A stretch of DNA of 64,000 bases from Candidatus Parcubacteria bacterium (GCA_018669975.1 JABHSK010000005.1:57123-121122); one strand, 5' to 3'. Numbered from the stretch's first letter, positions 57,234 to 63,452 are shown. Notes: generated by a model from the sequence alone, not told the origin. Numbers and translations are program-made.

Positions 57234-59330
57234 ATGCCCAGACAGTATCCATTAGGAAAAATTAGAAACATTGGCATCATTGCTCATATTGATGCTGGAA
57301 AAACTACCGTCACCGAACGTATCCTTTTTTATACTGGTAAAAAACATAAGATTGGTGAAGTCCACGAAGGTGAAGCTGAGATGGACTGGATGGAGCAGGA
57401 GAAAGAAAGAGGTATTACTATTACCTCAGCTGCTACTACTTGTTTTTGGGATCTACCAGATTGGTTAGGTGGTGACAAGGCTAACATTAATATTATTGAT
57501 ACCCCAGGCCACGTTGATTTTACTGTAGAGGTAGAGAGATCTTTACGTGTTTTAGATGGCGGTGTGATTGTTTTTGATGGTGTAGCTGGTGTAGAGCCAC
57601 AATCTGAAACTGTTTGGAGACAAGCTGATAAATACAATGTACCTAGAATAGCCTTTATCAACAAGATGGATAGAATGGGTGCAGATTTTTATTATGATTT
57701 AGATACTATTCACGAAAGATTAACTAAGATTGCTCATCCAATGCAGCTACCTATTGGTGCTGCTGAAACCTTTGAAGGTATTATTAATCTTTTGGAAAAA
57801 GAAGCTTGGTTTTATTTAGATGAAGATGGTAAGGAATTTGAAAAACGTGATATTCCAGAAGACTTGAAAGATAAAGTAGAAGAATATCGTGGTAAATTGA
57901 TTGAAGCCATTGTTGAAAATGATGAAGCTTTGATGGAAAAATATCTTGGCGGTGAAGAACCAGCTCTTGAAGATTTGAAAAAAGTTTTACGTAAGGCAGT
58001 GATCGATAATAAGATTGTACCTGTTTTTGTGGGCTCCGCACTTAAGAATAAAGGTGTGCAATTCTTGTTGGATGCTATTGTTGCTTATTTACCATCACCA
58101 CTTGATTTACCCGACATTGAAGGTACTGAGCCACGTAACGAAGAAAGTAAAGTTATTGTAAAAGCATCTGATGATGAACCGTTTACTGGTTTAGCTTTTA
58201 AAGTAGCTACCGATCCCTATGTTGGTAGATTAACTTTTGTCAGAGTTTATTCTGGCATTTTACAGTCAGGATCTTATGTTTATAATACTAACTCAGATAA
58301 GAAAGAAAGAATTGGTCGTATTTTAAGAATGCACGCTAATTCTCGTGAAGAAGTAAGTGAAGTGTATGCTGGTGATATTGTAGCCGTGGTTGGTCTTAAA
58401 AACACCACCACTGGTCATACGATAGTTGACCCAAGTCGACATGTTGTTTTGGAGAGTATGGAATTCCCTGATCCAGTTATTTTTGTGGCTGTTGAGCCAA
58501 AGACTAAACAAGATCAAGAAAAGATGGGACTAGCTTTGAGTAAGCTTACTGAAGAAGATCCTACCTTTACTGTCCGTACAGATGAAGAGACCAACCAGAC
58601 AATTATTGGTGGTATGGGAGAACTACACTTGGATATTATCATTGATCGTATGAAACGAGAGTTTTCTGTCGAAGCCAATGTTGGTGCTCCGCAGGTTGCT
58701 TTCAAAGAGACTATTGGAGTTCAGGCTGAAGCAGAAGGTAAATACGTCAAGCAGTCAGGTGGTCGTGGTCAATATGGTCATTGTTGGTTGAGGTTAGAGC
58801 CAATGGAAAGAGGTGCAGGTTTTGAATTTAGTGATGAAATCAAAGGCGGCTCTATTCCTAAAGAATATATTCCAGCTATTGAAAAAGGTATTAAGCAAAC
58901 AATGGCTAACGGAATTTTAGCTGGTTATCAAATTCAAGATGTTAGGGCTGTCGTTTACGATGGTAGTTATCATGAGGTTGATTCTTCTGAAGCAGCGTTT
59001 AAAGTAGCTGGTTCAATGGCTTTTAAAGCAGCCTTTAATAAAGCAAATCCTTCTGTCCTAGAACCGATTATGAAAGTAGAAGCTGTCACACCTGAACAAT
59101 ATATGGGTGACGTTATTGGTGATTTGAATTCTAAGAGAGGACAGGTTTCAGAAATGACAGATAGGGCTGGCGCTAAAGTTATTAATGCTGAAGTGCCACT
59201 TTCAGAGATGTTTGGCTATGCTACATCCCTTCGTTCTATGACGCAGGGTCGTGCTAGTTATTCTATGGAATTTGCCAAATATCAGGAAGTACCGAAGAGT
59301 GTAGAAGAAGAGTTGAAGAAGAAAGCGTAA
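57234..59330 (+). CDS. fusA: elongation factor G
   Basis: [22 protein letters not shown]; full five-domain length. Confidence 0.95.
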
Positions 59331-59400
59331 TTGTGATATAATATATAGAGCTGGTTTAGGCCAGTGTAATATATAAAATTTATTAGTAACACCCAGTAAA

Positions 59401-59595
59401 ATGCCACAAGGAAAAGTAAAGTGGTTCAATGACACCAAGGGTTTCGGTTTTATCGAACAAGATGATGGAGGTGCAGACCTCTTCGTTCACAAGACCGAAG
59501 TTGAAGGTGGTTCTTTGCAAGAAGGACAAGTTGTTGAATACGAAGTCGGCGAAGGTCCAAAAGGTCCTAACGCCACCAATGTAAAAGTTGCCTAA
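59401..59595 (+). CDS. cold-shock protein (CspA family)
   Basis: [15 protein letters not shown] (RNP1) and VFVHK (RNP2). Confidence 0.9.
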
Positions 59596-59618
59596 AAACA
59601 ATTGATATATTGAAAAAT

Positions 59619-59646
59619 TAAACCCCGCTTAGGCGGGGTTTTTTTG
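59619..59646 (+). terminator. intrinsic terminator after csp
   Basis: aaccccgcc-taa-ggcggggtt plus T8 (exact stem offsets approximate). Confidence 0.8.
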
Positions 59647-59656
59647 TTTATAAATA

Positions 59657-59690
59657 AAAACCCCACCGAATTGAATTCGGTGGGGAATAA
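59657..59690 (-). terminator. intrinsic terminator for the minus-strand gene 59694..60836
   Basis: ccccaccgaattgaattcggtgggg hairpin with a U-run on the minus strand. Confidence 0.7.
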
Positions 59691-59693
59691 AGA

Positions 59694-60836
59694 TCAAACA
59701 ATCTGGACAGCAAAGCCCTGGTCTACCATGCCTCGCATCATTGTAACCGCTGGATCATTGTCAGCTGGGACAATGACAGTAGTATCCCTAAATTGACTGG
59801 GATAGTCATGGTTGTTTAGGAAGGTTAGCTTGAGACCAGTGTTAATAATCAGACCGGGATTATAGATGCTGTTTTGTAGCACCGGCGTTAGTAGTTTGCC
59901 AGCTCTTTTTTCGTGATACTCTCGATCACAGAATAGTTTGAAGGCCAACAATTTGCCAGCAGAGAAGAAGGCTACCGCGATATTAGGTAGACTTTCTTGA
60001 ATTTTCTCACCGCTGTGAGCAATGACACCGATATTACTGACAACTTCACGACTATCATCCAGTAGGTAGGCAAAGCGGAGCGGACCTATGGGTGATTTGA
60101 TGCCATTCTCCAAAGGGAAGAAGCGCAAATGAGTGCCACGACGATTATTGTCGTATTTACCTTTCTTGTTGTAGCAGAGCATGAGCAGTTTTTCCGTATC
60201 CTTGAAGCTGACGCGGGTGCTGAGCTTGGATTCATTGGTGATACGACGAATTGATCCGCAAAACACACCGCGTTCATAGGCCACAAAGACTTCACCAGTC
60301 AGTAGATTGAGAACGATAGCAAAACGAATCTGGTTGTCTTTGAGGAAAGTGACGGAAGCATTTGGTGCCTGTACGCGGGCTAGTGGTTTGCCGATACGTT
60401 TGAGTTCGGCGTCAAAAATTTGACCCATAGTCTGGCAAGAGTCACCAAATTCCTCGATCATTCTTTCTAGATGAGATGATCCATCTATTGGATCAGAGAT
60501 AATAATCGGAGTATTGGTTTCGATGCGACGGTCTTTGGGTACACGACCACGTTCTTCGGTGATGACTACACCTGATTGACGGTAGATGCGTTGGAAGAGG
60601 GAATAGTGACCAAAGCATTGTTCACCGCCAAGGCAGATGATATCTTCGGCTACCACATCAAACCAACGTGTGTCCTTTCCATCTTTACGGGAATAGAGTG
60701 TCTGAGTTTCAGCGTCCATTTCGCTGATGTGGCGGATAGCATCTTTGACAGATAGGCGACATAGCGTGTTGTACATTCGTCGCATAATAGTCAGGGAGCC
60801 ATTGAGCATCATGGTGTCTTTGTTGGGGGGAGCCAT
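59694..60836 (-). CDS. inositol-monophosphatase/FBPase-superfamily-like phosphatase with an N-terminal extension (GC-rich islet gene)
   Basis: VVITEERG (metal-binding EE) about 40 aa before IIISDPIDGSSHLE (IMPase-like DPxDG[ST] motif); start set at the internal MAPPNK, which has GGAGGT 5 nt upstream (ORF track start 60902 has no SD). Confidence 0.4.
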   Translation of the reverse strand: MAPPNKDTMMLNGSLTIMRRMYNTLCRLSVKDAIRHISEMDAETQTLYSRKDGKDTRWFDVVAEDIICLGGEQCFGHYSLFQRIYRQSGVVITEERGRVPKDRRIETNTPIIISDPIDGSSHLERMIEEFGDSCQTMGQIFDAELKRIGKPLARVQAPNASVTFLKDNQIRFAIVLNLLTGEVFVAYERGVFCGSIRRITNESKLSTRVSFKDTEKLLMLCYNKKGKYDNNRRGTHLRFFPLENGIKSPIGPLRFAYLLDDSREVVSNIGVIAHSGEKIQESLPNIAVAFFSAGKLLAFKLFCDREYHEKRAGKLLTPVLQNSIYNPGLIINTGLKLTFLNNHDYPSQFRDTTVIVPADNDPAVTMMRGMVDQGFAVQIV

Positions 60837-60968
60837 TTTATTACCTCCGGCTCGGGTGATTGTTTGTGGGTTGTGAAGGTTCGATTGATAAATTTTTAAC
60901 ATAAATACATACTCTGGTCAAACCAGGAAAAATAAAATACCTACACTGCAAGTGTAGGTATCAGGTTG

Positions 60969-61136
60969 TTAGTCTTTTTTTGTTTCATTGGCGATAGTCT
61001 CATGTTCGCCGTCCAGTTTACGAATTTTCGTCTCAATGTCCATGACTAGACAATCCCAGAGTGAGATACCAAATGGGTCTGCCTGCAGAGCAGTGATAGT
61101 TTCGGGTTCAAGCCCGCCACGTACGATTTGGCACAT
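60969..61136 (-). CDS. small hypothetical protein (55 aa), not in the ORF track
   Basis: ATG preceded by AAGGGAGA at about 6-nt spacing; sequence MCQIVRGGLEPETITALQADPFGISLWDCLVMDIETKIRKLDGEHETIANETKKD. Confidence 0.3.
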   Translation of the reverse strand: MCQIVRGGLEPETITALQADPFGISLWDCLVMDIETKIRKLDGEHETIANETKKD

Positions 61137-61349
61137 CGATGTCTCCCTTCTATCCGTGAAGGAATTTAAAAGAACGTAATATTAAAAATAATAAAATTAT
61201 CTTAAACTGTCAAATAAAAAAAAGATCTCGATTCAAGGGAACCGAGTCTTTCTCGAGGGGTAGCGTTTACCCCTTTTAAACTCACTATTACTAGCGAGCT
61301 TAAAAGGGGCCCCGACAAGAAGTCAGGGCAGGGAACAGGTGGCGTGTTA

Positions 61350-61451
61350 TTAGGGCAGTTTGATGCCCATCGCCTGTTGTTCCCCTGAGGGAATTTCGAG
61401 CAATCCCATTGTGATTGCCAGTCCTTCTATGAGAGCTTTGATCAATTTCAT
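61350..61451 (-). CDS. small hydrophobic peptide (33 aa) with a perfect SD and a structured leader
   Basis: AAGGAGGTGATC-ATG; MKLIKALIEGLAITMGLLEIPSGEQQAMGIKLP; followed on the minus strand by hairpins (agggg-taaacgcta-cccct; ctcga...tcgag) and T8. Confidence 0.3.
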   Translation of the reverse strand: MKLIKALIEGLAITMGLLEIPSGEQQAMGIKLP

Positions 61452-61454
61452 GAT

Positions 61455-61560
61455 CACCTCCTTTTGGGGTTGAAGAAATTTTCCCTCCTGAATGCACCAA
61501 CTAGTGATACTCTCAGGAGGGAGCCAGTCTGAGACTGGCTTGAAAAAATTGTATGTAGAG
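61455..61560 (-). promoter_or_regulatory. structured 5' leader of the 33-aa peptide gene containing an anti-SD element
   Basis: On the minus strand: perfect hairpin gccagtc-tca-gactggc, then ctccctcctga...tcaggaggga (10-bp stem) immediately upstream of the true SD AAGGAGG; the CCCUCCU segment could alternatively sequester the SD. Confidence 0.35.
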
Positions 61561-61894
61561 AATTTGGGTGCAGAAGGTGGAGTTGAACCACATCCATTTG
61601 GACCGGTAGGTCATTGATTTGACGGGAACACCCATCCCTTAAACCGGCAACTGCCCAACATAAGTTGCTCTACAAAGAGCGGAACTGGAGGTGAGATTGC
61701 CCAACTTTGGACCTAAGCCCGTTGAAACCAGGTTACTAGGTTGAAATTATTGAGCCGGAGCCCTATAAAATCAGCTAATATAATCTGTTCTCGCCCCTCC
61801 AAATCTACTCTTTGCAAAAACTTTATTTTTCTAAGTTCTTTATTGTAATAGAGCATTATAGCATATATTTCATATCTTGTCAAGGGTATAAAAG

Positions 61895-61937
61895 GGTTAA
61901 AAAAAAGACCGTCGAGCGATGAACTCGACGGTGTAAT
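61895..61937 (-). terminator. intrinsic terminator for the SPFH-like gene
   Basis: On the minus strand: accgtcgag-ttcatcg-ctcgacggt plus T8. Confidence 0.8.
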
Positions 61938-61939
61938 AA

Positions 61940-62731
61940 TCAGGCCACCCTAGCCAGTAGATTAGATTTACCATTCCAGACAAAGTGTACAGACAGGAAT
62001 TCGTTGGTCTCAGTACTCCATTTATTTTCCAAGATATCAAAGATAGACATACCTACTGCTTGAGCAATTATTTGCTGCTTGATGTAGTCAACGTAGTGCT
62101 TTTCCAGGGCATGGGAGTCAACCTGGCGAGGTTGCCGACCATAGTTGAGTATCAATTTGATGGTGCCATTGAGATTGAGGCGCTTGCCTTCCTGACAGAT
62201 AATCTCCAAGTCTTTGAGATGTATCTTTGGTGTGGTGATAACGCGCAAGGCATAACTTCCCCCAGGACGTAGGTGGAATTGTTCACCGCCATAGTATAAT
62301 TGCTGTTTGAATCGGATTACATCACCTTCTGTAACTAGGCAGCACCTCCATACGCGGTACATTAGTAGTATCTGCAAGCCAAAAGTAGCTAGAGCGATAA
62401 TAGGAAGTTTACTGTTGAATTCGGGACTGACAAGGGGAGTTAGAAATAACATAAAGCTGACAAATATATTGCAGACAGCTAGTGGCCAACCTAGACCATG
62501 GGCAATAATGCCCAGGATTTTGCTGGGGTATTGGCAACGTGAAATACTGCGTTGCATGACCAGTAGTAGTGACGACATTAGCATGCAGAAGCCTAGTCCA
62601 CCGAGAGCTAGTCTAAAAATGGTAGAAAATGACCAATCTGTCGGATTTTCTTCGGTTGGCGTAAAGGTGCCATTAAGTAATAGGCCAAGGCCAAGGAAAA
62701 TAACAAATACGAACAACATCATCCATTTCAT
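61940..62731 (-). CDS. membrane protein: N-terminal 4-TM region plus C-terminal SPFH/band-7-like domain (GC-rich islet gene)
   Basis: AGGAGA SD; hydrophobic N-terminal half; C-terminal half YALRVITTPKIHLKDLEIICQEGKRLNLNGTIKLILNY...IFDILENK resembles the SPFH core pattern. Confidence 0.4.
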   Translation of the reverse strand: MKWMMLFVFVIFLGLGLLLNGTFTPTEENPTDWSFSTIFRLALGGLGFCMLMSSLLLVMQRSISRCQYPSKILGIIAHGLGWPLAVCNIFVSFMLFLTPLVSPEFNSKLPIIALATFGLQILLMYRVWRCCLVTEGDVIRFKQQLYYGGEQFHLRPGGSYALRVITTPKIHLKDLEIICQEGKRLNLNGTIKLILNYGRQPRQVDSHALEKHYVDYIKQQIIAQAVGMSIFDILENKWSTETNEFLSVHFVWNGKSNLLARVA

Positions 62732-62888
62732 GATTTTTTCTCCTGTTTTTTGAGTGGTTTTGATTGGGTAGGAACGATATTAAGATAAGCTAATATATCA
62801 ATTTCGTAGTTTTATGTCAATTGTGTATAAAATTGTTTGACAATAGCTGATTTTTACCATAAAATAAGCCTACTTTTAAGATAAATTT

Positions 62889-63263
62889 ATGGCAAATTAT
62901 AAACAAATGGACAAGGTTTTAGAGCTAGCAGCCAAAACTGGTGATAAGGTCATTGTATTATCAGAAAATCACGACCCTTATGTAGTGATGCCAGTCAAGG
63001 AGTATGAGGTTTTATTACAAGGTTCATCCACTGTAGATGGTCTAACTGAGGAGCAATTATTAGATAAAATAAACCGTGATATTGCTGTTTGGAAATCATC
63101 TCAAGATGACTTGGAAGATTACAATTTAGATCAATTTAAGGTGGAGTCACTTAAAAAAGTTGATGTAAGTAAAAAGGCGGTTGATAATAAAGTTCAGGAG
63201 CCAAAAATTGAGAAAGTTGAAGTCGAAGAAGAGGATAGGTATTATATTGAGCCTGTAGACTAG
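62889..63263 (+). CDS. hypothetical protein with a Phd/YefM-antitoxin-like N-terminal domain and an acidic/Lys-rich C-terminal tail
   Basis: MDKVLELAAKTGDKVIVLSENHDPYVVMPVKEYEVLL fits the YefM/Phd N-terminal pattern; no toxin gene adjacent. Confidence 0.35.
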   Translation: MANYKQMDKVLELAAKTGDKVIVLSENHDPYVVMPVKEYEVLLQGSSTVDGLTEEQLLDKINRDIAVWKSSQDDLEDYNLDQFKVESLKKVDVSKKAVDNKVQEPKIEKVEVEEEDRYYIEPVD

Positions 63264-63452
63264 TATTTTAGCTAACATTAGCTCATAAGTACTAAAAACA
63301 CAGATTATGCCCCAGGGGGCTTGCAAAAATTTAAGAACAGTGCTATAATCTGTGTGTTTTAAAAAACAATTATTAAGTAATTAATTTAAAAGATAGTTGG
63401 GTTACAAAGGCCCTTTATTTGTAGGGTCACTATCAAAGGAGAAACATAAAAA

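Follow-up and report, generated by a model that had tools for sequence, protein, structure and literature searches.

A structured RNA with a tRNA-like 3' domain and a clade-specific small gene form a putative transcription unit in Candidatus Parcubacteria

A 64,000-nucleotide (nt) stretch of DNA from a Candidatus Parcubacteria bacterium, a member of the candidate phyla radiation (CPR), was analyzed (GCA_018669975.1 JABHSK010000005.1:57123-121122, designated the window). On its minus strand lies a 33-residue open reading frame (ORF), which a sequence-only reading had described as a possible type-I-toxin-like or riboregulated gene behind a leader able to sequester its Shine-Dalgarno (SD) sequence. 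What that reading took for a leader forms the tail of a structured RNA of ~250 nt that is strongly conserved, and this RNA is the main feature of the locus. The locus is probably organized as a minus-strand transcription unit of ~630 nt, in which a consensus sigma-70 promoter is followed by the structured RNA, two hairpins (hp1 and hp2), a clade-specific gene for a 33-residue peptide, two further hairpins (hp3 and hp4) and a terminator (Table 1). With more reserve, we favor the view that the RNA represents a new family, in which a three-way-junction domain with an invariant SD/anti-SD-like helix is fused to a non-decoding mimic of transfer RNA (tRNA) that ends in CCA. One sub-clade would have gained the ORF, resulting in a dual-function transcript, and enzymes of tRNA metabolism (RNase P, the CCA-adding enzyme, and possibly a synthetase or EF-Tu) could be used by the RNA, which would then be a third tRNA-mimicking class beside transfer-messenger RNA (tmRNA) and YrlA.

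The unit is located within a variable island in the interval between fusA and tuf (59330-63400). The gene upstream on this strand encodes a 263-residue protein; its terminator (61932-61908) is followed immediately by the consensus promoter, from whose position transcription is predicted to start near 61848. A promoter with the same 12/12 match was also identified upstream of the RNA in two related contigs, L013 (1571-1599) and L017 (1802-1830). Taken together, the 12/12 promoter and the next terminator define the putative unit, from ~61848 to ~61218. No separate usable promoter for the ORF was found inside the unit when the window and L013 were scanned, and the 33-residue ORF is the sole SD-led ORF that the unit contains. 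The whole unit folded far better than shuffled sequences (z ~ -10, 20 shuffles). Across the window, no Rfam 15 family was detected at gathering score and ARAGORN called no tRNA or tmRNA gene; at E <= 10, Rfam returned noise only for the units of the window and of L017.

Contigs with an identical 263-residue neighbor belong to the same strain and differ by 0-1 nt, and a 21-mer scan of JGI metagenomes gave one match, from that same strain. Divergent relatives were found by way of protein anchors, the 263-residue and 380-residue neighbors. These relatives were L007/L013, L008 (263-residue neighbor 57% identical), L021 (380-residue neighbor 85% identical) and L016/L017 (380-residue neighbor 71% identical); the query that led to L013 was a spurious ORF, called across the RNA by gene-prediction software. 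From ~61838 to ~61562, the window and L007/L013 shared ~91% nucleotide identity, compared to 59% identity between their 263-residue proteins, a synonymous divergence (dS) of ~1.4 in the 380-residue gene, and 70% nucleotide identity in the 33-residue ORF. Across the RNA, none of the six frames was free of stops in the window, not even the one that L007 keeps open. The L016/L017 copy was 66% identical, and the two covariance models that were generated, R1 for the 5' domain and a second for the tRNA-like domain, still scored it at 99.7 and 37.4 bits, respectively, the R1 score in L017 comparing with 170 bits in the window. When L006, L013 and L017 were folded independently, the same helices were obtained, helix for helix. 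The ~91% identity beside saturated synonymous sites, together with the perfect promoter and the CCA end, indicated strong selection. Within this set of alignments the RNA was shown to be under much stronger constraint than the adjacent coding sequence, with helices that covary.

In the 5' domain, P1 is long and includes an invariant UUGGAGG/CCUCCAG pairing. The apical stem of the P3 hairpin stays paired across lineages, with its closing pair and apical tetraloop changed from C-G/UCCG to U-A/GCAA, and the stems of P4 are wholly different yet complementary (CAAC/GUUG versus AUGGU/ACCAU). Overall, 95.7% of the cells of the alignment were paired, and 9 of 54 pairs were doubly compensatory; such pairs numbered 3.6 +/- 1.4 after shuffling and 0-2 when the register was slid. 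The segment of P1 designated P1c (61802-61796 / 61691-61685, minus strand) is the SD-like UUGGAGG paired with CCUCCAG inside CUCACCUCCAG, a sequence that resembles the 3' end of 16S rRNA and in which CACCUCC is exactly complementary to GGAGGUG of the peptide SD region. This likeness may be a coincidence or a hint of an interaction with the ribosome or the SD sequence.

The 3' domain begins with an acceptor-like stem, which is a perfect 7-base-pair (bp) helix in L017 (GGCGGUU/AACCGCC) and GGCAGUU/UUCUGCC in window-type sequences. A first model, in which GGGGCGAGA at the 5' end paired with the 3' end, was dropped, as the partner in L017 is the internal GGCGGUU, with covariation. Within the domain, the P6 helix (CCGG/CCGG) carries hairpins P7 and P8, and a T-arm (61592-61576) has a 5-bp stem and a loop, UUCAACU in the window, that is conserved as UUCRACU. 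The T-arm of L017, GUUGG-UUCAACU-CCAAC, is followed by A and then CCA; in the window the discriminator is C at 61568, CCA lies at 61567-61565, and an N-CCA-A-N-UU tail is conserved. Eight of the 25 pairs of the domain were compensatory, with covariation in the acceptor and T stems, and the core of the domain folded with z = -2.95. Judged by sequence and predicted fold, the 3' domain is a mimic of the top half of a tRNA, with an acceptor stem, T-arm, discriminator and CCA.

The RNA is followed by a tail of hairpins. As the sequence-only reading had proposed, both hairpins upstream of the ORF exist, and they are conserved: in the L013 version of hp1 an A-U pair is replaced by G-C in a compensatory change and the loop is enlarged by an 18-nt insertion, and hp2, including its loop, is kept in L013 and L021. 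The two hairpins abut, and the segment that contains them (61440-61570) folded at -46.6 kcal/mol compared to -28.3 +/- 3.9 kcal/mol for 200 shuffles, none of which folded as well (z = -4.65). Homologues of both were identified in L017, where hp1 is AGCCUCAAC/GUUGAGGCU and hp2 forms a helix of 19 bp with arms, UCUCUCAAA.../...UUUGAGAGA, that have diverged from those of the window at most positions and still pair, a case of heavy covariation. Following the RNA of L017 are hp1, hp2, hp3, hp4 and a terminator-like hairpin, with no ORF downstream, and hp3 and hp4 are kept with compensatory changes in L013, L021, L008 and L017. Compared with this ORF-less series, the SD-plus-ORF segment is therefore an insert of ~150 nt between hp2 and hp3. 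These comparisons showed that hp1 and hp2 belong to the conserved hairpin tail of the RNA, which is also present in the ORF-less lineage. Downstream of hp2 the sequence is AAAAUUUCUUC in the window, AUAAGCAAAAAACC in L013 and AAUAAAAACCC in L021. The possibility that hp2 serves as the intrinsic terminator of the RNA was ruled out because no run of U follows it in L013 or L021, and the terminator scan did not call it. In the ORF-less lineage the hp4 loop (L017:2239-2266) exposes CCCUCCU, an anti-SD-like motif; motifs of this type are used by some regulatory small RNAs (sRNAs) to bind ribosome-binding sites.

The L017 arrangement also bears on whether the RNA is a cis-acting leader, such as a riboswitch or a tRNA- or protein-sensing element, that controls the 33-residue gene. 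A long, conserved and structured RNA lies directly upstream of the ORF and one promoter serves both, as would be expected of a leader; however, L017 retains the RNA, the promoter and the hairpin tail with no ORF to control, and in the lineages that have both, the RNA is far better conserved than the ORF. Neither a conserved pair of mutually exclusive terminator/antiterminator structures nor a sequestrator structure was found, and no riboswitch or T-box of Rfam was matched. We regard a dedicated cis leader as unlikely.

The small gene itself was as the sequence-only reading had described it, an ATG-initiated ORF behind a strong SD sequence on the minus strand, although the ORF finder starts it at a GTG further upstream, giving 35 residues. 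Conservation of the reading frame was confirmed in three lineages, with orthologues MKMIKQLLEILAICAGLIELSPEEQREMGVKLP in L013 (2041-2142) and MKLIKTLLEVLAISIGLIELSCEEQREMGIHLPD in L021 (70-174). The three orthologues differ at 23-31 of 99 nucleotide sites, with no insertions or deletions across the 102 nt of the ORF and several in its flanks, and the SD sequence, ATG and stop are all kept. Of the six frames, that of the peptide was the only one free of stops in all three lineages. Differences were fewest at codon position 2 (4-7) and most numerous, or tied for it, at position 3 (12-15). The ratio of nonsynonymous to synonymous substitution rates (dN/dS) was 0.23-0.39 in the peptide frame compared to 0.47-0.97 in one and 1.3-3.2 in the other of the remaining forward frames. 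An amphipathic pattern, formed by the N-terminal 20 residues, was preserved among the orthologues. These substitution patterns mark the 33-residue ORF as a genuine small-protein gene that evolves as coding sequence. It is doubtful, then, that the ORF is untranslated and its segment just a structured insert in a wholly non-coding unit. That explanation would account for the absence of the ORF from L017 and for a peptide with no homologues outside the clade, and two of the three lineages also have another frame without stops; the codon-like substitutions, the preserved amphipathic pattern and the freedom from insertions and deletions argue against it. When 1.84 billion representatives were searched exhaustively with phmmer, the peptide matched its own cluster and nothing else, and a Pfam scan of the peptide gave no match. 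The 33-residue protein is a new orphan family.

Improbable as well is the explanation that the sequence-only reading had put forward, in which a switchable SD-sequestering leader (a thermometer, riboswitch or sRNA target) governs a type-I-toxin-like peptide. The CCCUCCU arm of hp2 is indeed complementary to the SD sequence, and hp2 with its SD- and anti-SD-like arms is kept in the three ORF-bearing lineages; in L017, by contrast, hp2 occurs with no ORF and its arms are not SD-like, so the supposed co-occurrence of a riboregulated leader with its gene broke down. Alone, hp2 folds at -25.9 kcal/mol in the window and -18.4 kcal/mol in L013. Pairing of the CCCUCCU arm with its own partner was calculated at -17.5 and -15.5 kcal/mol (window and L013), compared to -10.7 and -7.9 kcal/mol for its duplex with the true SD sequence. 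When the 3' arm of hp2 was blocked, the minimum free energy of the window sequence rose from -51.4 to -35.5 kcal/mol, and the freed arm was still not placed on the SD sequence. The SD core was predicted to be unpaired at only ~23% in the window and 4.5% in L013, which would favor sequestration, yet the predicted masking partner varies between lineages, being a local CCCC in the window and UCUCCU after the CCA in L013. Since hp2 is more stable than the SD-pairing alternative by ~16 kcal/mol, the switch model fails, the mutually exclusive structures that it needs were not obtained, and a bistable SD switch operated by hp2 is excluded on the calculated energetics.

The peptide is small and partly hydrophobic, as a toxin might be. 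Its description as amphipathic was upheld, and its comparison with a transmembrane type I toxin was not: the best 19-residue Kyte-Doolittle window was borderline at 1.50-1.75, charged residues are spread throughout the peptide, and uncharged runs reach at most 9 residues. We classify the peptide as amphipathic rather than as a classical transmembrane helix. No toxin family was matched, and a search for a promoter facing the ORF from the antisense side found none that was convincing, the sole nearby plus-strand site (61165-61192, 9/12) lying beyond the terminator hairpin.

A divergent housekeeping RNA that standard tools had missed was considered in two forms, a tmRNA and a tRNA split by a group I intron. 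The tmRNA was first suggested by the GGGGCGA start and the GGUUCAACUCCACC end of the RNA. It was rejected: ARAGORN called no tRNA or tmRNA in the window or in the relatives' copies, the Rfam tmRNA clan gave no match at E <= 10, and no internal tag reading frame or stop was shared by the window and L007. In addition, the 5' strand of the acceptor stem lies inside the RNA, ~190 nt downstream of the transcript start, the 5' and 3' ends of the RNA do not pair, and the third acceptor pair is C-G with no G3.U70. The intron-split tRNA was explicitly tested because Patescibacteria tRNA genes with group I introns are often missed by tools, some of them being invisible to RF00028 and ARAGORN (PMC13011429). 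An exon and stem search found no upstream acceptor strand and no consistent anticodon stem with U33, and the acceptor partner is found 63 nt upstream of the T-stem in each lineage, a distance too short to hold an intron. A tRNA cloverleaf with a D-arm and an anticodon arm (7-nt loop, U33) was likewise not formed: the loops of P7 and P8 vary and have 3-7 nt, and neither could serve as an anticodon loop carrying U33. RF00028 gave no match to a group I core at E <= 10, though divergent Patescibacteria introns that RF00028 misses are reported (PMC13011429). A housekeeping RNA is very improbable, even though the T-arm, acceptor stem and CCA are present and ~285 nt would fit a tRNA with a small intron, and the deletion of the RNA from one lineage (described below) would be unlikely for an essential RNA. 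By one feature or more, the locus differed from each category tested: type I toxin, SD riboregulator, tRNA cloverleaf, tmRNA, split tRNA and terminator.

The structured RNA with its tRNA-like 3' domain is rare and restricted so far to one Parcubacteria clade. A two-block pattern of its invariant sequence had 0 matches among 185,579 species-representative genomes, and at loci of the 380-residue homologue in GTDB, JGI, ENA and NCBI, most of them in DPANN archaea, the RNA was found in none outside the clade. An 18-mer match in a viral contig (L033) was a chance match inside a coding region, and a second viral pattern had 0 matches; the RNA is not associated with phage. CPR (Patescibacteria) have tiny genomes with few recognized regulatory RNAs, and our literature search for tRNA-like RNAs of Parcubacteria or CPR did not turn up any account of this one. 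Gene content around the RNA also varies. L007/L013 (L013:700-2400) have genes for 96-residue and 67-residue proteins between the 263-residue gene and the RNA, and the window has neither. In the L008 lineage (L008:2380-2800), a deletion of ~0.9 kb cuts the 67-residue gene to 32 residues and removes both the RNA and the 33-residue ORF, suggesting that the RNA is an accessory element and not essential.

Several observations weigh against the reading of the locus as a tRNA-mimicking RNA with an acquired small gene. The loss of RNA and ORF in L008 argues that the unit is dispensable. The covariation statistics are thin, as they draw on three to four lineages that all belong to a single small clade; moreover, the alignment of the 5' domain was fitted to the covariance model, and P7 and P8 were matched between lineages by position and not by sequence alignment. 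The acceptor stem of window-type sequences consists of five Watson-Crick pairs with two U.U or C.C mismatches at its base, and the window strain has A at 61569, giving G.A at the first acceptor pair, where L006, L013 and L017 have C. Pairing of 5' UUGG with 3' CCAA, which would consume the CCA, is possible. The arms of hp2 are SD- and anti-SD-like only in the ORF-bearing clade, and some link to translation is therefore possible. Finally, the start of transcription, co-transcription, processing of the tRNA-like module and translation of the peptide are all deduced from sequence. The A at 61569 may be a polymorphism or an assembly error; L006, which has C, is a near-identical strain.

With the tRNA-mimicking reading, a route from transcript to products can be proposed. 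The tRNA-like module would be recognized by enzymes that act on tRNA ends. RNase P would cut at 61656/61655, on the 5' side of the module, and trimming or repair would act on the CCA (to 61565). These steps would detach the 5' domain and the tRNA-like module from the peptide mRNA downstream, leaving that mRNA with a new 5' end at which hp1 and hp2 would act as stabilizing stem-loops. Here hp2 would serve as a stable structure that aids processing, protects the RNA or binds protein, and not as a switch. The strong SD sequence would drive more or less constitutive translation of the peptide, with no dedicated switch.

Table 1. Predicted features of the minus-strand unit and of the gene downstream, in window coordinates.
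Feature	Position	Strand	Description
Promoter	61883-61855	-	TTGACA-17-TATAAT, extended -10 TG, 12/12 consensus match
5' domain	61816-61671	-	P1 helix closes a three-way junction with P2, P3 and P4
Linker	61670-61656	-	Small hairpin in window-type sequences, shorter in L017
tRNA-like 3' domain	61655-61565	-	Contiguous 88-nt module closed by the acceptor-like stem
hp1	61539-61523	-	GCCAGUC-UCA-GACUGGC
hp2 ("anti-SD stem")	61522-61482	-	11 outer pairs, UCCCUCCUGAG/UUCAGGAGGGA, and 6 inner pairs
Shine-Dalgarno sequence	61463-61457	-	AAGGAGG, 5 nt before ATG; AAGGAG kept in L013 and L021
33-residue gene	61451-61350 (ATG 61451-61449), plus stop	-	Product MKLIKALIEGLAITMGLLEIPSGEQQAMGIKLP
hp3	61329-61309	-	GCCCUGAC/GUCGGGGC
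hp4	61308-61271	-	3' hairpin of the unit, loop GUAA in the window
Intrinsic terminator	61254-61218	-	Core stem 61246-61227, then T-run; from the terminator scan; L013 counterpart at 2247-2278
55-residue gene	60969-61136	-	Separate unit; own promoter-like site at 61213-61185

Located downstream of the unit is the 55-residue ORF that the sequence-only reading had also pointed out. It is present and conserved in relatives (L013, with a dN/dS of 0.24, L021 and L008) and has no Pfam match; none of the small flanking proteins scanned scored above the Pfam cutoff. A neighboring gene encodes the 380-residue protein (59694-60836, minus strand), which has a dN/dS of 0.03 and no Pfam match above cutoff; Foldseek assigned it a fold of the IMPase/FBPase/SuhB superfamily (probability 1.0), and it contains a DPIDGS motif. 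Its family is common to Parcubacteria and DPANN archaea (Nanoarchaeota, Woesearchaeota and Aenigmarchaeota), which suggests transfer between domains, and in some archaeal contigs the gene adjoins that for histidyl-tRNA synthetase (HisRS). A gene for a 64-residue cold-shock protein (59401-59595) coincides with a match to the Rfam cspA thermoregulator (59187-59646, plus strand; 36 bits versus a gathering score of 78, E = 9e-7). The match covers the 5' untranslated region and the coding region, and coding conservation may supply much of the score. Beside tuf, a 124-residue protein (62889-63263, plus strand; 144 residues in L017:1291-1725, minus strand) has an N-terminus weakly similar to Phd/YefM antitoxins (E ~2e-4, below the Pfam cutoff), and no gene for a partner toxin was evident.

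Among known systems, tmRNA (SsrA) is similar in being a structured RNA of a few hundred nt with an acceptor stem, T-arm, discriminator and encoded CCA and no anticodon arm. The tRNA-like domain of tmRNA is formed from both termini of the molecule, includes G3.U70, and accompanies a tag frame flanked by pseudoknots. In contrast, the tRNA-like part described here is a contiguous 3' domain, and the RNA lacks G3.U70, a tag frame and the series of pseudoknots, is undetected by ARAGORN and Rfam, and was lost from one lineage. A tRNA-like fold within a longer transcript, as proposed here, is also found in the MALAT1/mascRNA modules and in the thrU-tyrU-glyT-thrT-tufB operon of E. coli, in which RNase P and 3'-end enzymes could separate the parts of the transcript. 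Those systems concern a eukaryotic long non-coding RNA or decoding tRNAs, whereas the RNA described here would be a non-decoding mimic in a CPR bacterium, with processing that is predicted.

RNAIII of Staphylococcus, which encodes delta-haemolysin (hld), is likewise a multi-hairpin RNA with one promoter and a short amphipathic ORF of ~30 residues, and it carries C-rich anti-SD-like motifs, comparable to CCCUCCU in the hp4 loop of L017. However, there is no sequence or structural homology between the two, and the ORF described here occurs in one clade of the RNA family only. Type I toxin-antitoxin systems and SD-sequestering thermometers share with this locus a small ORF, a strong SD sequence and an upstream stem with anti-SD-like sequence; they differ in that here no transmembrane helix and no antisense RNA are evident, and the stem is too stable and occurs without the ORF. 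The intron-containing tRNA genes of Patescibacteria (PMC13011429) come from the same phylum and, as here, are RNA genes that have tRNA features yet escape standard tools, but the RNA described here is a contiguous 88-nt module in its tRNA-like part and has no 5' exon or anticodon loop and no group I core that RF00028 matches.

If tRNA-processing or charging enzymes do act on the RNA, it would be a new example of tRNA mimicry in bacteria. The sub-clade with the 33-residue gene would moreover make it tractable to study how an RNA gene acquires a small-protein ORF. In terms of annotation, the locus adds one orphan family of 33-residue proteins and one family of 55-residue proteins, and it indicates that the "leaders" of small ORFs in CPR genomes can be unrecognized RNA genes.

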